UHGV virus genome: UHGV-0063983
Source of the DNA: a virus
Reading direction: 5' to 3' (one strand)
DNA length: 24,510 bases
Below, in pieces: positions 11 through 12,554 of this stretch (positions within the stretch are counted from its first letter, which is position 1; each line of letters opens with the position of its first letter). Below the pieces are notes generated by a model that was not told the DNA's origin, made no database searches, and saw nothing but the letters and a program-made list of their open reading frames with translations. The translations under genes were made by a program, and so were the position numbers.

Positions 11-28
11 TGTGTACATTTGTACACA
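11..28. promoter_or_regulatory. Perfect palindrome TGTGTACA-TT-TGTACACA overlapping the 5' end of the TetR-family gene; probable autoregulatory operator
   Basis: Read directly: bases 11-18 tgtgtaca and 21-28 tgtacaca are exact reverse complements, 22 nt upstream of the ATG at 50. TetR-family repressors commonly bind palindromes at their own promoters. Confidence 0.45.
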
Positions 29-49
29 ATTGCAGACAGAGGAAATGAC

Positions 50-586
50 ATGCGTCGCGCTAACGATCCGCAACGGCGAGAAAAAATTATCCAGGCCACG
101 CTGGAGGCGGTGAAACTTTACGGAATACATGCTGTTACGCACCGCAAAATTGCTACCCTTGCCGGGGTACCGTTGGGATCGATGACCTACTATTTTTCAG
201 GAATTGATGAGTTGTTGCTGGAGGCGTTCAGCAGTTTTACTGAGATTATGTCCCGGCAATATCAGGCATTTTTTAGCGATGTTAGTGATGCTCAAGGCGC
301 ATGCCAGGCTATCACCGATATGATCTACAGCTCACAGGTTGCAACGCCGGATAATATGGAGCTGATGTACCAGCTCTACGCGCTGGCTAGCCGAAAACCG
401 CTATTAAAAACGGTAATGCAAAACTGGATGCAGCGCAGTCAGCAAACGCTCGAACAATGGTTTGAACCCGGAACCGCCCGCGCGCTTGATGCGTTTATTG
501 AGGGGATGACGCTGCATTTTGTCACCGACCGTAAGCCGCTATCGCGCGAGGAGATTTTGAGGATGGTTGAGAGGGTTGCAGGGTAG
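50..586 (+). CDS. rcdA: TetR/AcrR-family transcriptional regulator (host gene flanking the prophage), likely RcdA/YbjK
   Basis: 178-aa product starting [41 protein letters not shown], with an N-terminal TetR-type helix-turn-helix. ATG at 50 is preceded by GAGGA; the ORF-track start at 20 is a TTG extension. Symbol assigned from memory of the E. coli sequence, not from a search. Confidence 0.8.
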
Positions 587-690: not shown

Positions 691-1743
691 TTACGGGGTA
701 ATGCCAACCGCTGCCGCCACTTTGTCGCCACTTGGCAGCGTTGCCAGAGGATTGAAACGGAGCGCCGTTTCCAGATGATCTGGTGCCAGATGTGCGTAAC
801 GCATAGTCATTTTTATATCGTGGTGTCCGAGAATTTTTTGTAAGGCCAGAATGTTTCCACCCGACATCATGAAGTGCGCCGCAAACGTATGGCGCAGAAC
901 GTGTGTGAGTTGACCGCGAGGGAGCACGATAGACGTTTTTTCCATCACGGATAAAAATTGAAAATAGCAGTCTGTGAAGAAATTGAACCCATCAAGCGCC
1001 ATGATCTCTTCGTAAAGCTCTTTACTGATAGGGATACTTCTGTTTTTCTTCCCCTTCGTTCTTACAAAGGTAATTCGGTATTTGGTCACCTGTGAACGAG
1101 TAAGATTTACGGCTTCTCGCCAGCGTGCGCCTGTGCTTAAGCATATCTTAACTACCAGTGCTAGAATTGGGTCCTGACGTTTGCAATCAGCCAGTAATTC
1201 AACAATCTGCTCATGGGTAAGCCATGCCATCTCTTTTTCTGCGATGGTGAATTTTCGCATGTTCTCCAGTGGGTTCGGATACGACCATTCGCCCAGACGG
1301 GATAGTTCGCTAAAAACACTACTTAGATAGCTTTGCTCCAGGTTAATGGTGACCGGGCTTGCTCCTTTCTTCCATTTCTCGCTGAAGTAGATCTCGCCTG
1401 TCAGGCGTTTATCTCGATAGTGGGCAAACATTTTAGAGGTGAGATCGGTTGCAAGAGGATTGCCCAGAGCGTCAACCATCAGCAGCAATTTGTCATAGAC
1501 ATGCTGCCCAGCAGTCAGAGATTTACCATGTAGTTTGAACCATAGCTCAACCACGTCTTTCAGGGTTCGACGATCCACTGATTCGCCCAGCCATGGCTTT
1601 GATTCGGTTTCTTCCATAGTGTGACGCTCAAAAGCCAGAGCTTCGCCTTTGGTGGCGAATTGTTTACGCACACGACGCCCACTTCGTCCGGCGGGGTAAC
1701 ATTCGCAAAGCCATTTCCCTGTGGTGAGTTTTCGTACTGCCAT
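691..1743 (-). CDS. int: P2/186-family tyrosine integrase
   Basis: Product begins MAVRKLTTGKWLCECYPAGRSGRRVRKQFATKGEALAFERH, the typical P2-type Int N-terminus, and carries the C-terminal catalytic region (ARWREA..., HVLRHTFA..., MRYAHL). The ORF-track start at 1899 is an upstream in-frame extension; ATG at 1743 chosen by homology pattern. Confidence 0.9.
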   Translation of the reverse strand: MAVRKLTTGKWLCECYPAGRSGRRVRKQFATKGEALAFERHTMEETESKPWLGESVDRRTLKDVVELWFKLHGKSLTAGQHVYDKLLLMVDALGNPLATDLTSKMFAHYRDKRLTGEIYFSEKWKKGASPVTINLEQSYLSSVFSELSRLGEWSYPNPLENMRKFTIAEKEMAWLTHEQIVELLADCKRQDPILALVVKICLSTGARWREAVNLTRSQVTKYRITFVRTKGKKNRSIPISKELYEEIMALDGFNFFTDCYFQFLSVMEKTSIVLPRGQLTHVLRHTFAAHFMMSGGNILALQKILGHHDIKMTMRYAHLAPDHLETALRFNPLATLPSGDKVAAAVGITP

Positions 1744-1931
1744 AAAAAATGCCCTCCAGTAGAGAGCATTTTTACTGTATGTATAACCAGTGTCAATGTA
1801 TGAAATCCTACGACCATACATCTCACTGAAGCCATAATGAAGTTGGCTATTCTTTTTGCTATGTGAGCATGTAACTTTTGCGGTTAACCTGCGGCTCATT
1901 TTTATTTTAGACGCAGATATAAAAGCAAAAG

Positions 1932-2123
1932 TTATCGTGAGTTTTTAGTACAGATTTTTTTGGATTTACTAATAGTTCCATCATTGCAAACGAATTTGCC
2001 ATCTGAGGTACAGTGAGAAACACCTCCCTTTTTCCCTGAGCAGGGATAATTTCTAGCATAGGTAGTTAGTGGGTTTAATAACAAAGAACATGACAAAACC
2101 ACAAAAAATACCTTACCAAGCAT
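1932..2123 (-). CDS. Small secreted cysteine-containing protein (63 aa) with signal peptide; cargo gene between cI and int
   Basis: Hydrophobic N-terminus [23 protein letters not shown] followed by a roughly 40-aa lysine-rich mature part with 4 Cys. Strong GGGAGG ribosome-binding site 5-6 nt upstream of the ATG on the minus strand. AT-rich, and begins 15 nt downstream of the cI stop on the same strand. Confidence 0.6.
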
Positions 2124-2138
2124 AGTTTCCTCCCGGTA

Positions 2139-2714
2139 CTATTTAACATACTTGACTGTTAAACTTATAATTTTACCAATTATTTCAATGTCTTCTATCT
2201 TACATTCGAAGGCTCTGTTTCCACCCTCGACGAAGATTCTTCCACCGGGTAAACGAGTAATGTCACGGATCGTTACTTCGCCATCAATACTTATTACCCA
2301 TTTACCATCACGTATATCATCAAATTCTTTATCACAAATAAATTCAGAATTGTTATCTGTGATGACAAAAGGTTTTTTAAACGTAGAGGGTAAAAATCCC
2401 TTATCAAAAATATAAAAACCGTCTTCACGCAAGGCACCATCAGATAATACATATTTAGCAACTTCCATAGTATTTGTATTACCTGAAGTTTGCTTTGAAC
2501 CATGTCCGGTTGTGAGCCAATTAAGCGAGGTGCCCGTTTCAAGGGCGCACTGGATTACCCATTCTGCTGGGAATGAGTCACGCATGTAGCGTGTGGCGAG
2601 TGTACTTTTAGAGATTCCTAAATGATCGCACAACGCCTGTCGAGTTTTGAATCCATAAGCTTCTACCATGCGCTCTATAGCGCCTCGTCCGCCTTTCTCC
2701 AAATTCATGGTCAC
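2139..2714 (-). CDS. cI: 186-type CI immunity repressor
   Basis: 191 aa with N-terminal helix-turn-helix (AYGFKTRQALCDHLGISKSTLATRYMR... CALETGTSLNWLTTGHG), matching the size and organisation of phage 186 CI; located between int and apl on the leftward strand. Confidence 0.85.
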   Translation of the reverse strand: MTMNLEKGGRGAIERMVEAYGFKTRQALCDHLGISKSTLATRYMRDSFPAEWVIQCALETGTSLNWLTTGHGSKQTSGNTNTMEVAKYVLSDGALREDGFYIFDKGFLPSTFKKPFVITDNNSEFICDKEFDDIRDGKWVISIDGEVTIRDITRLPGGRIFVEGGNRAFECKIEDIEIIGKIISLTVKYVK

Positions 2715-2762: not shown

Positions 2763-2833
2763 ATGGTGTTCACAAAATACAAACGATCCGTATTCGTCCT
2801 GATTAATCATCATTAAACGAGGAATGTTGCATC

Positions 2834-3055
2834 ATGAGACCTAACATTTCAATCACTCTTACCACGCCTCATGTGACTATTGAGCGCTATAGCGAGCTGA
2901 CAGGGCTGTCCATCGATACCATCAATGACATGTTGGCTGACGGACGCCTTATCCGTCACCGTTTGCGCAAAGATAAAAAACGCGAAAAAGTGATGATCAA
3001 CATAGCAGCCATGACCGTTGATGCGCTTTCAGAATGCAATCTAAACCTTAATTAG
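2834..3055 (+). CDS. apl: Apl/Cox-like excisionase and switch regulator
   Basis: 73-aa basic helix-turn-helix protein immediately right of cI and left of cII, the position of 186 apl / P2 cox. Confidence 0.7.
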
Positions 3056-3087: not shown

Positions 3088-3597
3088 ATGTTTGATTACC
3101 AAGTTTCCAAACATCCACATTTTGATGAAGCCTGTCGTGCATTTGCACTGCGCCACAATCTGGTGCAACTGGCAGAACGTGCAGGCATGAATGTGCAGAT
3201 TCTGCGGAACAAGCTGAACCCAGCTCAGCCTCATCTATTAACCGCACCAGAAATCTGGCTGCTTACCGATCTGACTGAAGATTCAACGCTGGTAGATGGT
3301 TTTCTGGCACAGATTCATTGTCTGCCATGTGTACCGATTAATGAGGTGGCAAAAGAGAAACTGCCACATTACGTCATGAGTGCAACCGCAGAGATCGGGC
3401 GTGTTGCTGCAGGTGCGGTATCTGGCGATGTAAAAACCAGTGCAGGTCGTCGTGATGCTATCAGCAGCATTAACTCTGTAACACGACTGATGGCGTTGGC
3501 TGCTGTTTCATTGCAGGCCCGTTTACAGGCTAACCCTGCGATGGCGAGTGCAGTTGATACCGTGACCGGACTCGGTGCTTCATTCGGTTTGCTGTGA
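3088..3597 (+). CDS. cII: 186-type CII lysogeny-establishment activator
   Basis: [49 protein letters not shown]...[25 protein letters not shown] closely matches my recollection of 186 CII; AGAGG ribosome-binding site before the ATG at 3088. Confidence 0.85.
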
Positions 3598-4888: not shown

Positions 4889-5742
4889 GCACCATCCTGA
4901 AATGGGCGGGAAATAAAACTGCCATAATGTCCGAACTGAAAAAACATCTTCCTGCTGGCCCGCGACTGGTTGAACCTTTCGCGGGTTCCTGTGCTGTGAT
5001 GATGGAGACGGATTATCCCAGCTATCTGGTTGCGGATATTAATCCTGATTTAATCAACCTCTATAAAAAGGTTGCCGCTGATTGTGAATCGTTTATATCT
5101 CGCGCCAGAGTTTTATTTGAGATCGCAAACAGGGAGGTGGCTTATTACAACATAAGGCAGGAGTTTAATTACTCAACTGAAATTACTGATTTCATGAAAG
5201 CGGTATATTTCCTGTATCTCAATCGTCACGGTTACCGTGGTTTATGTCGCTATAACAAGAGCGGGCATTTCAACATTCCCTACGGTAATTATAAAAATCC
5301 GTATTTCCCTGAAAAAGAAATTCGCGCATTTGCAGAAAAGGCCCAGCGAGCAACGTTTATCTGCGCCAGCTTTGATGAAACGCTGGCGATGTTGAAGGCG
5401 GGGGATGTGGTGTATTGCGATCCGCCGTATGACGGTACGTTTTCCGGCTATCACACTGACGGCTTCACTGAAGATGACCAGTATCACCTGGCATCTGTTC
5501 TTGAACATCGGTCATCAGAAGGACATCCGGTCATTGTTTCTAACAGTGACACATCCCTGATCCGTTCGCTGTATCGCAATTTTACTCACCACTACATCAA
5601 GGCAAAACGCAGCATCGGTGTGGCAGCTGGCGAGGGTAAATCAGCAACAGAAATCATTGCTGTTTCCGGGCCGCGCTGCTGGGTGGGATTTGATTATTCG
5701 CGTGGCGTGGATAGTTCTGCCGTGTACGGAGTACGTGCATGA
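4885..5742 (+). CDS. dam: Dam-like DNA N6-adenine methyltransferase (orphan, phage-encoded)
   Basis: N-terminal ILKWAGNK...EPFAGSCAV (AdoMet-binding) and catalytic DPPY ([10 protein letters not shown]). GGAGG before the ATG at 4885; stop overlaps the gene A start (ATGA). Confidence 0.85.
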
Positions 5743-8153
5743 GTCATGCCGATATGAACAACTGCTGCGGCTTTAACGAAGCTGCCGCATCGTTCTCATG
5801 GAACAGCCCGAAAAAGGCCATTAACCCTTATCTGGACCCGGTGGAAGTTGCGCCGGTTTCTACGCTTTCAAACCTGATCACTCTGTACGCTGCCGATAAC
5901 GAGCAGGAACAGCTGCGCCGTGAGGCGCTGAGTGATCAGGTCTGGGAGCGTTATTTCTTTAATGAATCCCGTGATCCTGTCCAGCGCGAAATGGAACAGG
6001 ATAAGCTCATTAGTCGGGCAAAGCTGGCGCATGAGCAGCAGCGTTTTAATCCGGATATGGTCATTCTGGCGGACGTCAACGCCCAGCCTTCCCATATCAG
6101 CAAGCCGCTGATGCAACGTATTGAATACTTCAGCAGCCTGGGCAGGCCAAAGTCTTATTCCCGCTATTTACGTGAGACGATTAAGCCATGTCTGGAACGA
6201 CTGGAGCATGTACGCGACAGTCAGCTATCTGCATCTTTTCGCTTTATGGCAAGCCATGAAGGGCTGGACGGCCTGCTGATCCTGCCTGAAATGAGTCAGG
6301 ATCAGGTGAAACGCCTGTCCACCCTGGTAGCTGCGCATATGAGTATGTGCCTTGATGCCGCTTGTGGCGATTTGTATGCCACCGATGACGTTAAGCCAGA
6401 AGAAATCCGCAATACATGGGAAAGGGTGGCAGCGGAAACCCTGCGTCTGGATGTCATCCCGCCTGCGTTTGAGCAACTCCGTCGGAAAAGAAACCGCCGT
6501 AAACCCGTGCCCTATGAACTCATTCCGGGTTCGCTGGCGCGTATGTTGTGCGCCGACTGGTGGTATCGGAAATTATGGAAGATGCGTTGCGAATGGCGGG
6601 AAGAGCAGTTGCGTGCAGTCTGCCTTGTCAGCAAAAAAGCATCTCCTTATGTCAGCTATGAAGCCGTGATGCATAAACGTGAGCAGCGCCGTAAGTCGCT
6701 GGAGTTTTTCCGTTCTCATGAACTGGTGAACGAAGACGGCGACACGCTGGACATGGAGGATGTGGTAAACGCCAGCAGCAGCAACCCAGCGCATCGCCGC
6801 AATGAGATGATGGCCTGTGTTAAAGGTCTGGAGCTTATCGCGGAAATGCGCGGTGACTGCGCCGTTTTCTACACCATCACTTGTCCGTCACGTTTCCATT
6901 CCACGCTAAATAACGGCAGGCCCAACCCAACCTGGACAAATGCGACGGTAAGACAAAGCAGTGATTATCTGGTCGGCATGTTTGCTGCATTTCGTAAGGC
7001 GATGCACAAAGCCGGATTGCGGTGGTATGGCGTGCGGGTGGCTGAGCCGCATCATGACGGTACAGTTCACTGGCACCTGTTGTGTTTTATGCGCAAAAAA
7101 GACCGCCGCACCATCACTGCATTACTGCGTAAGTTTGCCATCCGTGAAGACCGCGAGGAGCTGGGCAATAACACTGGGCCGCGCTTTAAGTCTGAGTTGA
7201 TTAACCCGCGCAAAGGTACGCCAACAAGCTACATCGCGAAATACATCAGTAAGAACATTGACGGGCGTGGTCTGGCTGGCGAGATCAGCAAGGAAACGGG
7301 GAAATCCCTGCGTGATAATGCTGAATACGTTAATGCCTGGGCGTCTCTGCATCGTGTTCAGCAATTCCGCTTCTTTGGCATTCCGGGGCGTCAGGCTTAC
7401 CGTGAACTGCGATTGCTGGCTGGTCAGGCGGCAAGGCAACAGGGGGACAAAAAAGCAGGTGCGCCGGTACTGGATAACCCGCGCCTTGATGCCATTCTGG
7501 CTGCTGCTGATGCTGGTTGTTTTGCCACCTACATCATGAAGCAGGGTGGCGTACTGGTTCCCCGCAAATATCACCTCATCAGAACTGCTTATGAAATCAA
7601 CGAAGAGCCGACCGCCTATGGCGATCACGGCATTCGTATTTATGGCATCTGGTCACCTATTGCAGAGGGCAAGATCTGCACTCATGCCGTGAAGTGGAAA
7701 ATGGTTCGTAAGGCCGTTGACGTTCAGGAGGCGGCAGCCGACCAGGGCGCTTGCGCCCCTTGGACTCGTGGCAATAACTGTCCCCTTGCTGAAAATTTGA
7801 ACCAGCAGGAGAAAGATAAATCAGCTGATGGGGACACCAGAACGGACATTACCTGCATGGATGACAAGGAGTTGCACGATTATCTGCACAGTTTGAGCAA
7901 AAAAGAGCGCCGGGAACTGGCTGCAAGGTTACGCCTGGCTAAGCCGAAACGGCGTAAAGACTACAAACAGCGAATTACAGATCATCAGCGACAACAGCTC
8001 GTCTATGAGCTGAATTCCAGAGGATTTGATGGTAGCGAGAAAGAGGTCGATTTACTCCTTCGCGGCGGCAGTATTCCGTCAGGAGCAGGCCTGCGTATCT
8101 TCTATCGGAACCAGCGTTTGCAGGAAGATGACAAGTGGCGGAACCTGTATTAA
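5739..8153 (+). CDS. A: P2/186 gene A rolling-circle replication initiator
   Basis: 804 aa, with an HUH-like motif ([15 protein letters not shown]) and a catalytic tyrosine pair ([10 protein letters not shown]) typical of P2 gpA-family initiators; sits after the early genes and before the accessory region. Confidence 0.9.
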
Positions 8154-8951: not shown

Positions 8952-9467
8952 ATGCCTGGGTTAGAAAATGCACAGCAAAATCAAGTTGATGAAATCGTTC
9001 CAGCAATGCAAATCGCATTGGTCGAAGAAGATATAGAACAACCCATCGCTGCCGAATACCTATACAGCCAGCATATAAGTGCGCTTGTGCCACAATGCCC
9101 TCCTGCCGAAGCGACAGAGTGCGATAGAGAATGCTGGCGTTTTACACTGAATCCTATAAGTCACAACTGCTTTTGGCCTCCAAAAAGAAGATCACCGCAG
9201 CGAATTGCTTCCGACGATGCGGAGGAGTGTTCTATGTGGGCGTTGTCTATGTATGAATCAGAGGCCCAGGCTACAAGAGCCTATACCATGTTAGCGAAGA
9301 AGATGAAAAATATCAGAAAAGCTATTGGTGATCACCTTGCTGTGGGTTCAGTAACCTGTAGTGATGGTAAATGTATGCCTGCTAGCAGAACCGGTCACTT
9401 TGATTTTCATCCTTATGTGGATGCGGATTTCGTTAACGGGTTCCAAGTAATACGAGCATTACCATGA
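8952..9467 (+). CDS. Hypothetical protein, 171 aa (first gene of the accessory operon)
   Basis: ATG at 8952 preceded by AGGAGT at good spacing; AT-rich coding region; no motif I recognise; stop overlaps the next gene start (ATGA). Confidence 0.65.
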   Translation: MPGLENAQQNQVDEIVPAMQIALVEEDIEQPIAAEYLYSQHISALVPQCPPAEATECDRECWRFTLNPISHNCFWPPKRRSPQRIASDDAEECSMWALSMYESEAQATRAYTMLAKKMKNIRKAIGDHLAVGSVTCSDGKCMPASRTGHFDFHPYVDADFVNGFQVIRALP

Positions 9468-10555
9468 TAAAATTAGATGCTAGAAGAATAAATGCGTCAA
9501 CTGTCGGAGATTATTCTTGGTACTCTGACCTCGTATATTTCGATGGTCCCCTAATTTGCTTGTTTAGAGGAAGCGGATATAAAGATGCTCTTTATGTCTG
9601 GCTTGATAATTCGGAGCGTGCCAATCGTTGGTGCTTGATTCCAGTATCAAGATCTACTTTGGACTCTTATCTTAACCAAAGAATGAGTTTAAGGGAGATT
9701 ATACAATCGAGCGAATATACATATATCTGCGATCATTTTGCGAAAACCGGAAGGAAGCACTACAACATTTTGCACGTTGATAGTTTTCCTGAGGAGTATA
9801 TGCCTGATGAAGATTCATATTTGTATGAAGAAATATGTACTGATGATGCATTGCTGTTGAAGCAGGAGCGCACCTCCAGTTATATGCTTGGATTAGATAA
9901 TCAGTTGTTTATAAATGATTTATCTGTAATACCAAAAATTTTCGAACAGCTCTATTCTTTCCATTACGGATTGGCTCATTTAGGACGGTTGTCGATTAGA
10001 AATACCATGTTGCGTCTGATGGGGAATTGGACGGGTGGAATATCAGCAGTAAATATATTTTCAGGGTTGAAAAATGTTATTCCTGTTTTGCATCGACCAG
10101 AGATTAGCTCTCTCCAATACAATTCACCGGGGCATATTGAGTTAAATTTACTTCCTGATTTGGCTCAAAGTGTTCAAGATGCATCTATTCGTGTGAAAAG
10201 TGAGCTAGTTTATGACCGTCTGGAGAAAATGTATAAAAATACATATGCATACTTCAAGGATAATGGGCTGTCAGGCTTTGATGAAGACGGCGGCATTGAA
10301 ATTAGAAATATCGATAGTGATACCACCGAAAACCTACGTAAACGCGTAAGAATATTTTTTAGATGTTTGGGGTGGTCAAGTTATCAAGCTCAGTTTGATC
10401 TGATCGGTGCCCATCCTCTACAACAATTACGTGCTGTGATGGCCTACTACAGGCGGCTCAAAATCTTGCGTGAATACATTGTCTCCGAGAAGCTTTTTGT
10501 TGGTCAGTCTCGGGTGTTACAGCAGCCACAAATTGCTCTGCCTCCTGAGGATTAG
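9464..10555 (+). CDS. Hypothetical protein, 363 aa (second gene of the accessory operon)
   Basis: Long intact ORF, translationally coupled to the upstream gene; AT-rich; no Walker A or other obvious nuclease or ATPase motif found by eye. Confidence 0.7.
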   Translation: MIKLDARRINASTVGDYSWYSDLVYFDGPLICLFRGSGYKDALYVWLDNSERANRWCLIPVSRSTLDSYLNQRMSLREIIQSSEYTYICDHFAKTGRKHYNILHVDSFPEEYMPDEDSYLYEEICTDDALLLKQERTSSYMLGLDNQLFINDLSVIPKIFEQLYSFHYGLAHLGRLSIRNTMLRLMGNWTGGISAVNIFSGLKNVIPVLHRPEISSLQYNSPGHIELNLLPDLAQSVQDASIRVKSELVYDRLEKMYKNTYAYFKDNGLSGFDEDGGIEIRNIDSDTTENLRKRVRIFFRCLGWSSYQAQFDLIGAHPLQQLRAVMAYYRRLKILREYIVSEKLFVGQSRVLQQPQIALPPED

Positions 10556-10809: not shown

Positions 10810-11508
10810 ATGGTTATGTTAGTGGATGACTGTCCACGATGTGGATCACAAAAAATAGCGTTTGATGTTAATGGGCTGAATTGCACTAGGGTTTACAATG
10901 CATTGGGCGGGGGTAAAACATACGAATACGAGGTCTATTGTGTTTGCCGAGAGTGTCATAAAACGACAATGTTTCTTTGCAGACCTTTAACGAAAAATAA
11001 AACTTTAGATGGCTATAATTGGGAAAGTGGAATATTCGGCTTAAAGGAAGTTGCAGAGGTTGTTAGGCCTATATCACCGGCAGACTTAGCAGTAGAGGAG
11101 CCGCCAGAGTTCTTACCTGAGCATATCAATAGTGCATATGAGGAAGGGGCGAAATGTTTGGCTATTGGTTGTTATAATGCAGCAGCAACCATGTTTAGGC
11201 TTTGCCTTGATTATGCAACAAAAGGACTTCTTCCTGATGGGGAGCAAGGGCCTGCGCAAAAAATAAGGAGAAGCCTAGGGTTAAGAATGGATTGGTTATT
11301 TGATAATCATCTATTGCCTGAAGCTTTAAGGGAACTAGCTGAATGCGTTAAAGATGACGGAAATGATGGAGCGCATGAAGGTATTTTGGATAAAGCTGCT
11401 GCTGAGGATCTTGAAGATTTTACCTATCTTTTTTTAGAACGGCTTTACACTGAACCTCAACGCCTTATCGAAGCCAAGACAAGGCGTGAACAAAGAAGAA
11501 ACAAATAA
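10810..11508 (+). CDS. Zinc-ribbon protein with C-terminal DUF4145-like helical domain (232 aa)
   Basis: N-terminal CPRCGSQK...CVCRECHK (CxxC...CxxC zinc ribbon). C-terminal region (AAATMFRLCLDYATKGLL...LRELAECVKDDGNDGAHEGILD) resembles the [RK]-x2-GN-x2-AH signature I associate with DUF4145. GGGAGGA ribosome-binding site; AT-rich. Confidence 0.65.
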   Translation: MVMLVDDCPRCGSQKIAFDVNGLNCTRVYNALGGGKTYEYEVYCVCRECHKTTMFLCRPLTKNKTLDGYNWESGIFGLKEVAEVVRPISPADLAVEEPPEFLPEHINSAYEEGAKCLAIGCYNAAATMFRLCLDYATKGLLPDGEQGPAQKIRRSLGLRMDWLFDNHLLPEALRELAECVKDDGNDGAHEGILDKAAAEDLEDFTYLFLERLYTEPQRLIEAKTRREQRRNK

Positions 11509-11516
11509 GTTCGGAA

Positions 11517-12554
11517 TTATTCTTCTGAAAGAATATAGGGCGTAAATTTAATCACTTCTTCGCCCAGCCAGTCGTTCAGCTCTTGTAGCCTTTTTTGCAA
11601 GGGCGTTAATTCATTACGTACAAATACGCGACTGGCCTTCTCCACATCCCCAAAACCCCCAACATTATTCGGCAAAATTCCCATCATCTGGGGCGGTACG
11701 CGGTGCGCCGCCATCATGTCATCACGGCTGACGTTCTTGATGTTCAGAAATTCATCCTTCGCTGCGACTTCTGACAACGGGATAATCTGAAGTCCGTCTT
11801 TTTTACCATTAGGCGAGTACATAAACAGATTGCGGAAGTTACCCGGACCTTTGGCGCTTTTCATTGCGTTGCGGAGGTTGTTCACATCCTCCTGGTTCTG
11901 CGCGGCATCGGTCATATACATGATGAAGCCAGCATGACTGCCATTGATGTAATATTTACGGCGGAACAGCGTGGCGGACTCGTTGAGCAGGGCTGACGGA
12001 ATGGCAGAAAGATAACCGGGCAGGCCGTAGATCTCCTGGTTGATGTCCGGTTCTATCAGATGAAAGATGCAGCCTTTCGTGAACTGATACGGCTGCGTGG
12101 TCATGCCGTATTGCACAAACCAGTAGGTATCCAGGTCTAAACCGCGTCGGGTGTATTTTGCCAGCGCAGGTTCAAGGGTGATAACTTCACCGAAGCGGTT
12201 CGTGCGTTTCTCCAGGTAGGCGTTACCAAATACCAGATAGTCCTGCACAAAACGTGAAAAAGCCTGCTGGCTGAGCAGCGGGTGAGGGATGTAGGTGCTG
12301 GTCAGAATGTTGCATTTCACCGCAATCGGTGAGCTGTGATGCACGGCGGCGCGGAAGGTTCGCGCCAGTCCGTCGAAACTCACAGGCGGCTCATACCAGC
12401 GATCCATCTGTACGCATTCCACATAGTCCAGCAGTTCACGGCGGTCCAGAACAGGAACGGGATCGCCAAAGCTGAATGCTTCGGCTGAAGTTTGGCTTTT
12501 ATGCTGGATCTGGTTCGTCGACGCAGCGCGGTTCTTCTTACTCTTTCCCATCAA
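11517..12554 (-). CDS. Q: Portal protein (P2 gpQ)
   Basis: 345 aa, immediately downstream of and overlapping (ATGA) the large terminase on the minus strand, matching P2 gene order and gpQ size. Confidence 0.85.
   Translation of the reverse strand: MMGKSKKNRAASTNQIQHKSQTSAEAFSFGDPVPVLDRRELLDYVECVQMDRWYEPPVSFDGLARTFRAAVHHSSPIAVKCNILTSTYIPHPLLSQQAFSRFVQDYLVFGNAYLEKRTNRFGEVITLEPALAKYTRRGLDLDTYWFVQYGMTTQPYQFTKGCIFHLIEPDINQEIYGLPGYLSAIPSALLNESATLFRRKYYINGSHAGFIMYMTDAAQNQEDVNNLRNAMKSAKGPGNFRNLFMYSPNGKKDGLQIIPLSEVAAKDEFLNIKNVSRDDMMAAHRVPPQMMGILPNNVGGFGDVEKASRVFVRNELTPLQKRLQELNDWLGEEVIKFTPYILSEE

Follow-up and report, generated by a model that had tools for sequence, protein, structure and literature searches.

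A YdcA-family mini-protein gene behind the cI repressor of a 186-like prophage: a candidate lysogenic-conversion factor

The viral genome UHGV-0063983 was analyzed as one stretch of 24,510 nucleotides (nt), hereafter the window, which carries a 186-like prophage beside rcdA, with cI, an apl-like gene, cII, fil, a Dam methylase gene, and replication gene A. The subject of this report is a 63-amino-acid open reading frame (ORF) at 1932..2123 on the minus strand, located between the integrase gene int (691..1743, minus strand, 350 amino acids), on the side of the rcdA (ybjK) flank (20..586), and the 186-type cI repressor gene (2139..2708, minus strand; PF07022 and PF16452, Phage_CI_repr and Phage_CI_C), for which RefSeq uses the ATG at 2708 and a GTG at 2714 is also open. 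The ORF starts with an ATG (2123..2121) 15 nt beyond the cI stop codon (2141..2139), is preceded at a distance of 5 nt by the Shine-Dalgarno sequence GGGAGG (2134..2129), and ends with a TAA codon (1934..1932). An initial annotation, made from the sequence alone, had proposed a small secreted protein expressed from the repressor operon and a candidate for lysogenic conversion; the ORF it described is real, its distance from cI and its ribosome-binding site agree with the coordinates, and its strand, left unstated there, is minus.

The predicted product has the features of an exported peptide. Its N terminus carries K4, a hydrophobic core of 12 residues (5 to 16), and T-Y-A at the −3/−1 positions, an n-h-c layout that delimits a signal peptide of residues 1 to 23 (2123..2055, minus strand) with a predicted cleavage site TYA|R after Ala23, which coincides exactly with the conservation break in the alignment of homologues. 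The remaining 40 amino acids (2054..1935, minus strand) contain four cysteines, seven lysines, and two arginines versus two aspartates, with an isoelectric point of 9.7, bearing out the initial description of a signal peptide followed by a lysine-rich, four-cysteine mature part of roughly 40 residues. The core cysteines are C28, C38, C46, and C58, and the CSGxKGG ... FVCxDGxxSxS motif that they belong to is complete; a fifth cysteine, C12, lies within the signal peptide and is not conserved among homologues. A lipoprotein of the Bor/Cor/Llp type was rejected using the criterion of a conserved +1 cysteine ending a signal peptide no shorter than 15 residues, as V-L-S-C at residues 9 to 12 is too N-terminal and the homologues lack C12. 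We thus infer export by Sec with cleavage after Ala23, and the mature domain would presumably be held by two disulfides in the periplasm. The ORF had also been placed in an AT-rich insert. An AT-rich zone (30 to 37% GC) does exist at approximately 1750 to 2500, but it also takes in the C-terminal half of cI (33% GC), so that AT-richness is no signature of the ORF alone.

An open frame of 63 codons is expected by chance at about 1% per frame at 35% GC. The encoded protein matches the NCBIfam model NF007463 over residues 5 to 63 with 115.8 bits, against a curated cut-off of 93, and PHROG 6000 with an E value of 1.9e-34. Comparison with the allele of Escherichia coli BL21(DE3), which shares 93.7% DNA identity, revealed 12 differing codons, 11 of them synonymous and one conservative (R24K). 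In the best 80 IMG/VR loci, all of them near-identical copies that inform on alleles without adding new contexts, the frame is intact in 80 of 80, nine DNA alleles encode three proteins, and 15 synonymous variants are found versus two non-synonymous ones (T20A and R24K; none within the 32-residue core). The GGGAGG motif is conserved in 78 of these copies and reads GGGAGT in the other two. Furthermore, the identical protein occurs on at least 1000 contigs, and DNA similar to the ORF is present in 648 of 5,426 complete E. coli genomes, including BL21(DE3). Homology and the substitution pattern together thus indicate that the ORF, which we refer to as ydcA-like on the strength of its profile matches, selection, and invariant four-cysteine core, is a bona fide gene under purifying selection.

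By its profile matches, the protein is an already catalogued member of the YdcA family (PF27300, NF007463, PHROG 6000) and not a new object. The initial annotation, which had proposed a homology search, missed this family, which the search does find and which RefSeq had already annotated, across hundreds of genomes, under the product names "YdcA family protein" or "hypothetical protein." The PF27300 "YdcA" assignment is recorded, in precomputed form, for homologues; the Pfam copy that was scanned predates PF27300 and contains no YdcA model, and the sole Pfam match of the ORF, to a GULLO2-like entry (E 0.075), is noise. The related model NF007462 gave 68.5 bits, below its cut-off of 118, and NF007463 is the model that the protein satisfies. 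The lpg1681 family was also rejected, its match being weak (E 0.11). A profile search of 1.84 billion representatives recovered 460 clusters at E <= 1e-3, of which 256 reach E <= 1e-10, giving a family size of about 460 clusters at 50% identity. Its members share a core of 30 to 32 residues, C-S-G-x-K-G-G-[IV]-x-x-C-x(3-4)-F-[VI]-C-x-[DN]-G-x-x-S-x-S-K-K-x-C, in which the four cysteines are invariant when the core alone is aligned (n = 40); in the full-length alignment (n = 44), this holds for two of them, the other two being conserved to at least 90%. The N-terminal 23 to 26 residues of homologues show 18 to 50% identity, always with the n-h-c layout, while the 32-residue core shows 78 to 97%, and this combination of a variable N terminus and a conserved core is what a cleavable signal peptide ahead of a mature domain under constraint would produce. 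A literature search on PF27300, PHROG 6000, PRK10040, and the RefSeq accessions turned up incidental mentions only.

The position of the gene suggests that it is transcribed with the repressor. In the 15-nt gap between cI and the ORF, a minus-strand consensus scan detected no promoter-like or terminator-like site. A candidate pL promoter was placed at 2824..2852 on the minus strand, with a −35 element TTGAAA (2852..2847), a 17-nt spacer, and a −10 element CAACAT (2829..2824); it scores below the threshold of the consensus scan and faces the start of the apl-like gene, in the same geometry as the annotated pL of phage 186. The lysogenic operons of 186 and K139 are both annotated as running from pL through cI to int. 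The proposed co-transcription with cI is therefore supported insofar as the ORF is the next cistron with no site in the gap, although expression itself is read from gene order. On gene order and by analogy with the 186 and K139 operons, the ORF appears to be a sound candidate for lysogenic conversion. On the plus strand, a sigma-70-like site, TTAACA-17-TATAAT (11 of 12 consensus positions), is present at 2143..2171 and would be read antisense to cI, entering the gene at its 3′ end; in this AT-rich region, such sites are as numerous as expected from shuffles, and this one is perhaps due to chance.

The 188-nt spacer between the ORF and int (1744..1931, minus strand) is unusually structured, with a folding energy of −59.4 kcal/mol (z = −5.3; none of 200 shuffles was as stable). 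Folding places a long imperfect hairpin of 61 nt at 1873..1933 (minus strand), starting at the ORF stop codon, which could serve as an mRNA 3′ stabilizer. Further downstream, a CII-type inverted repeat, ATGTATG-N12-CATACAT (1796..1821, minus strand), abuts a candidate int promoter composed of a −35 element TTGACA (1796..1791), a 17-nt spacer, and a −10 element AAAAAT (1773..1768), also on the minus strand. This repeat resembles both the annotated CII site of 186 (ATGTTTG-N13-CAAACAT) and the window's own site at 3088..3114; among relatives, the half-sites are of the ATGTTTG type (ATGTTTG or ATGTTTAA) in four loci and of the ATGTATG type in the rest. Immediately before int, folding reveals a terminator-like hairpin, AAAAAUGCUCUCU-ACU-GGAGGGCAUUUUU, at 1745..1773 (minus strand), which the consensus scan missed, with a U-run that ends at the int AUG and a 3′ arm that constitutes the int Shine-Dalgarno sequence (1757..1752). 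Single-sequence folds place hairpins of differing sequence at the same position in E. coli, Klebsiella, and Hafnia relatives, and this int-leader layout can be made out less clearly in Yersinia and is missing in phage 186; RNAalifold returned no consensus for the int leader, MAFFT having placed two hairpin classes out of register. The 1745..1773 hairpin is likely the 3′ end or an insulator of the cI-ydcA transcript, and the leader suggests that int has a separate CII-activated promoter, insulated from pL read-through. A hairpin and a CII-type promoter before int would restrict the maintenance transcript to cI-ydcA, which strengthens the case for expression of the ORF in the lysogen. Described initially as a moron, the gene does form a cassette in the cI-int slot, but it has no promoter of its own, and the downstream hairpin belongs to the int module.

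The linkage of ydcA to cI extends well beyond this prophage. In diverged enterobacterial homologues, ydcA is found directly 3′ of a 186-type cI in every contig looked up, while the genes beyond it vary: the order is cI, ydcA, KAP NTPase, int in an E. coli relative (67% identical protein) and in Klebsiella; cI, ydcA, int in Yersinia, with ydcA immediately before int; and cI, ydcA, a 347-amino-acid membrane protein gene, int in Hafnia. In Haemophilus phage HP2, an unannotated 60-codon homologue begins on the final base of the cI stop codon and is followed by orf1 and int. Across these relatives, the gap between cI and ydcA ranges from −1 to 49 nt, and the partner repressors are 34 to 95% identical to the window CI while the YdcA cores are 78 to 100% identical. 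In phage 186, cI and int overlap by 1 nt, so that the ORF and the 188-nt spacer represent extra DNA relative to 186. An E. coli megablast with the int-spacer-ORF-cI segment found the contiguous arrangement in 590 genomes; about 500 further genomes match int only, up to 1803-1821, with other cargo or another cI beyond, and this breakpoint makes the CII-type repeat the recombination boundary of the int module. Slot variants within E. coli include cI-ydcA-KAP-int, cI-KAP-int, and cI-ATPase-int, in sister prophages at the same rcdA site. Judging from these arrangements, ydcA occupies the cI-int slot as a facultative cassette, staying next to cI while the distal cargo changes.

Other members of the family reside elsewhere. 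A Xenorhabdus copy adjoins an ogr/delta gene. Phages that infect Haemophilus, Moraxella, Acinetobacter, or Pseudomonas encode members as well, and in those of Moraxella and Acinetobacter the copies are inserts in head/tail modules. Acinetobacter and Rhizobium plasmids also carry members, including mobilizable plasmids of about 4 kb, and some occupy ordinary chromosomal neighborhoods in other Proteobacteria. No partner gene beside ydcA is homologous across taxa, although neighbors often encode membrane-anchored or exported proteins. These observations bear on the idea that the ORF encodes a secreted toxin or bacteriocin-like peptide, or is a non-functional or untranslated leftover. The product is indeed small, cationic, and cysteine-rich, the gene is present on very small plasmids, and it is retained in the defective prophage of BL21(DE3). 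However, no conserved immunity or export partner lies alongside, a Sec signal peptide would deliver the peptide only to the periplasm, and a leftover is excluded by purifying selection and by the frame being intact in all 80 IMG/VR copies. We consider this explanation the least probable of all, and very improbable in itself.

The slot itself suggests another function. The initial annotation had compared the locus with P2, in which cI and int are adjacent; the cI-int slot is indeed a known location of cargo in P2-related phages, but the genetic switch is 186-like (cI/apl/cII/fil) and not P2-like. The gap between cI and int is a cargo and defense hotspot in P2-related phages (PMC9122126, PMC13586616), and approximately 8% of P2 defense systems lie between int and primase (PMC13586616). 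The ydcA gene shares this variable slot with KAP NTPases, ATPases, and defense genes (PMC9122126), but unlike this other cargo it is much smaller, non-enzymatic, predicted to be exported, and always cI-proximal. The closest parallel in position is glo of the P2-related Vibrio cholerae phage K139, which also lies between cI and int in the lysogenic operon and encodes a periplasmic protein annotated as "periplasmic protein; involved in phage exclusion" (PMC4870250); Glo has 137 amino acids and is unrelated in sequence to the window protein (BLASTP E 0.16). By analogy, the ORF may encode a dedicated superinfection-exclusion factor, a periplasmic peptide that would block phage DNA injection as Glo does. 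The shared operon position, the defense hotspot, the KAP NTPase cassettes that adjoin ydcA in relatives, and the copies inserted in phage head/tail modules all favor this possibility. Against it, the protein has neither Glo homology nor a PADLOC match, core paralogues exist on chromosomes, the sequence is nearly invariant across hosts with differing phages, and no YdcA member has given an experimental hint of exclusion. A role dedicated to exclusion is thus doubtful, if well short of negligible.

The chromosomal relatives suggest a different role. A chromosomal paralogue, ydcA (b1419), is part of the hokB-ydcA-rydC-cybB locus of E. coli K-12; its product shares 57% identity with the window protein (E 1e-19) and 78% within the core. 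The two proteins have the same size, a predicted Sec-type signal peptide, and a four-cysteine core of 30 to 32 residues, and differ in that one is chromosomal and the other prophage-borne, behind cI. K-12 YdcA is described as a protein of 57 amino acids with a signal sequence, predicted to be periplasmic and of unknown function (PMC11340327). Deletion of ydcA in E. coli W caused sensitivity to 300 mM 3-hydroxypropionate, which the authors relate to acid resistance, and this sensitivity is the only phenotype reported in the YdcA family (PMC7642389); it was overridden by deletion of yieP. Reports cited in the same study place ydcA under YdcI control and describe it as induced, in a YdcI-dependent manner, when the pH is 5. 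The intergenic region between rydC and ydcA, upstream of the latter, contains a binding site for the sigma-S holoenzyme (PMC5493296). The prophage copy could thus be a host-fitness gene that does the job of chromosomal YdcA, in the envelope or in tolerance to acid and organic acids, and is supplied constitutively from the repressor operon. The near relationship of the cores, the deletion phenotype and acid-linked regulation, the sigma-S site, the housekeeping chromosomal contexts of members in other Proteobacteria, and the strong purifying selection, which fits a host-directed function, are all in keeping with this idea. Nevertheless, the copy would be redundant with chromosomal ydcA unless dosage or timing matters, the link to acid is thin, consisting of one deletion phenotype that a second deletion overrides, and fusions to nucleases and a secretion-system protein, described below, as well as the preference of the family for mobile elements, are left unexplained. 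We regard host fitness as a possible function but one that more probably is not the answer.

Structural comparison revealed an additional relative. AlphaFold2, run with the 44-sequence alignment, gave a short hairpin-based fold with predicted local distance difference test values of 84 to 90 at residues 31 to 60. The sole relative in the Protein Data Bank (PDB), by sequence profile as well as by Foldseek, is Dis2 (Lpg0823; PDB 7MUC/7MUD, chain AN). Matches to Dis2 were obtained with hmmsearch (E 2e-4 for a profile of the full-length protein, 1e-3 for one restricted to the mature domain) and with hhalign (83% probability, E 9e-6), and 7MUC and 7MUD are the top two Foldseek hits (probabilities of 0.98 and 0.84), with all others at or below 0.1. 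The YdcA motif is present in each Dis2 lobe (CCSKMGGINYC..GRLVCNNGFYS and ..GGV....GLVVCNDGYVSE), and a close, near-identical Dis2 homologue is recorded as PF27300 (proteins P0228 and P0229). Two other PDB profile matches, to low-density lipoprotein receptor class A repeats (E 0.015 to 0.1) and to plant type-II proteinase inhibitors (E 0.25 to 8), were rejected as coincidences of cysteine pattern: the number of cysteines differs, the alignment covers just half of the domain, and there is no other support.

Dis2 is a subunit of the Legionella Dot/Icm system located near the outer membrane, built of two similar lobes pinned by five disulfides in total (PMC8486379); it contacts DotD, DotK, and DotC and is dispensable in Legionella (PMC8486379, PMC12716638). 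It has been called Legionella-specific and without structural relatives (PMC8486379, PMC12716638), despite which its lobes match the widespread YdcA domain. Dis2 is exported and disulfide-rich, as is predicted for YdcA, and the two share sequence and fold at the level of the lobe; Dis2, however, is two-lobed, with five disulfides, and a stoichiometric part of a secretion machine, whereas the window protein corresponds to one lobe with four core cysteines. The protein might therefore be considered an accessory or modulator of type IV or type VI secretion or of conjugation, tuning or sabotaging such machines in the lysogen. In addition to the Dis2 homology, some identical sequences bear the UniRef label "Conjugal transfer protein," a traD-like gene adjoins the YdcA copy on a 3.9-kb mobilizable Acinetobacter plasmid, and one YdcA-VasL fusion is known. 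But the UniRef name is automatic, the protein has one lobe and not two, Dis2 itself is dispensable (PMC12716638), and no secretion-system gene appears in the ORF lists or annotations of the window, or beside most copies of the family. A secretion accessory is accordingly a very unlikely identity for the ORF product.

Domain fusions provide further information on what the YdcA unit may do. It occurs N-terminal to secreted nucleases of three unrelated folds (three Endonuclease_NS, one SNase, and one PLD-type), in one fusion with VasL of the type VI secretion system, with a PBCV-basic-adaptor-like tail, and in two or three tandem copies (fusion and tandem proteins P0195, P0151, P0181, P0111, P0184, P0116, and P0079 to P0083). 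Such arrangements are in keeping with a portable module for binding or anchoring rather than with an enzyme, and the ligand of such a module could be nucleic acid or an outer-membrane-proximal component of the envelope.

Taken together, these results lead us to conclude with high confidence that the ORF encodes a basic YdcA mini-protein, predicted to be exported and disulfide-bonded and probably co-expressed with CI. As the second cistron of a 186-like lysogenic operon, ydcA would probably be made together with CI in every lysogen, from a transcript for which the hairpin before int is most likely the 3′ end or an insulator. The precursor would be exported by Sec and cut after Ala23, and the 40-amino-acid basic peptide would fold in the periplasm. 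It has no catalytic features and most likely acts as a rigid module, a binder or an adaptor, because of its homology to the Dis2 lobes and the repeated fusion of the unit to secreted nucleases. Its ligand may be a highly conserved polyanion or a partner on the face of the outer membrane that is turned to the periplasm, for example DNA, or peptidoglycan, lipopolysaccharide, or a lipoprotein complex; that it acts as a free-standing binding module at this face or on periplasmic DNA is proposed with low confidence. A constitutively made, free-standing module of this kind would be expected to change what docks at or crosses the periplasm.

Overall, we moderately favor a lysogen-made, non-enzymatic periplasmic YdcA binding module as the best explanation of the data. 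As to its benefit, interference with incoming foreign DNA (superinfecting phage, possibly also conjugation or DNA uptake) is ranked first, because of the position of the gene, the hotspot, the nuclease fusions, and the secretion-system relative; tolerance to envelope or acid stress, as linked to the chromosomal paralogue, would come second, and the readings as an accessory of a secretion machine, as a toxin, or as a leftover ORF are ranked much lower. Several observations weigh against this interpretation. The near-invariant core across genera is atypical of an exclusion factor engaged in an arms race, a PADLOC scan of the ORF protein matched none of its families, and no YdcA member is known to act in defense. 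E. coli already possesses a chromosomal ydcA, which makes the benefit of a second copy unclear. Moreover, pL is assigned by position, with a weak −10 element (3 of 6 consensus bases), and the predicted cleavage site derives from the −3/−1 rule and the alignment.

The remainder of the window is consistent with a common E. coli element. Over the rcdA-int-ORF-cI-apl region, identity to E. coli chromosomes reaches 99.9%, and at least 80% of the first 3.1 kb of the window is found in 626 of 5,426 complete E. coli genomes. The interval from replication gene A (5739..8153) to the portal gene (11517..12554, minus strand) contains, on the plus strand at 8952..10555 and 10810..11508, a PD-T4-10 A/B defense pair (PADLOC E 1e-75 and 2e-172) together with a DUF4145 protein that matches PD-T7-4 weakly; this location corresponds to the P2 gpA-Q defense hotspot, which is thus occupied here. 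In the defective prophage of BL21(DE3) (NC_012892.2, 872493..876297), cII and the replication gene are truncated pseudogenes, while cI, the YdcA gene (B21_RS23140, 873696..873887), and int are all intact. BL21 is therefore a strain ready for testing prophage YdcA, and, given the carriage of ydcA in the repressor operon of many 186-like prophages, BL21(DE3) cultures should make YdcA protein.

The value of this locus lies in the handle that it offers on an orphan family that includes a y-gene of E. coli K-12. To the existing YdcA annotation, the present analysis adds the linkage to cI across genera, the relationship with Dis2, the nuclease fusions, and the int-leader elements, and three of these leads, namely carriage in the repressor operon, the Dis2 relative, and the nuclease fusions, make the family experimentally approachable. 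Should the protein turn out to keep DNA from entering or to strengthen the envelope, it would represent a portable lysogenic-conversion factor of very small size. A broader and distinctly speculative proposal, which we consider improbable, is that the YdcA/Dis2 unit, as a widespread module of the periplasm, binds either DNA itself or a partner close to the outer membrane through which DNA passes, and that the phage and plasmid copies form a new class of entry interference. Such copies, which are found in the naturally competent Haemophilus, Moraxella, and Acinetobacter as well as in 186-like coliphages, would then act in the periplasm to stop superinfecting phage, conjugation, or transformation. 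Such a role would also give a function to the orphan ydcA and would explain the presence of Dis2 on a machine that translocates DNA and protein.

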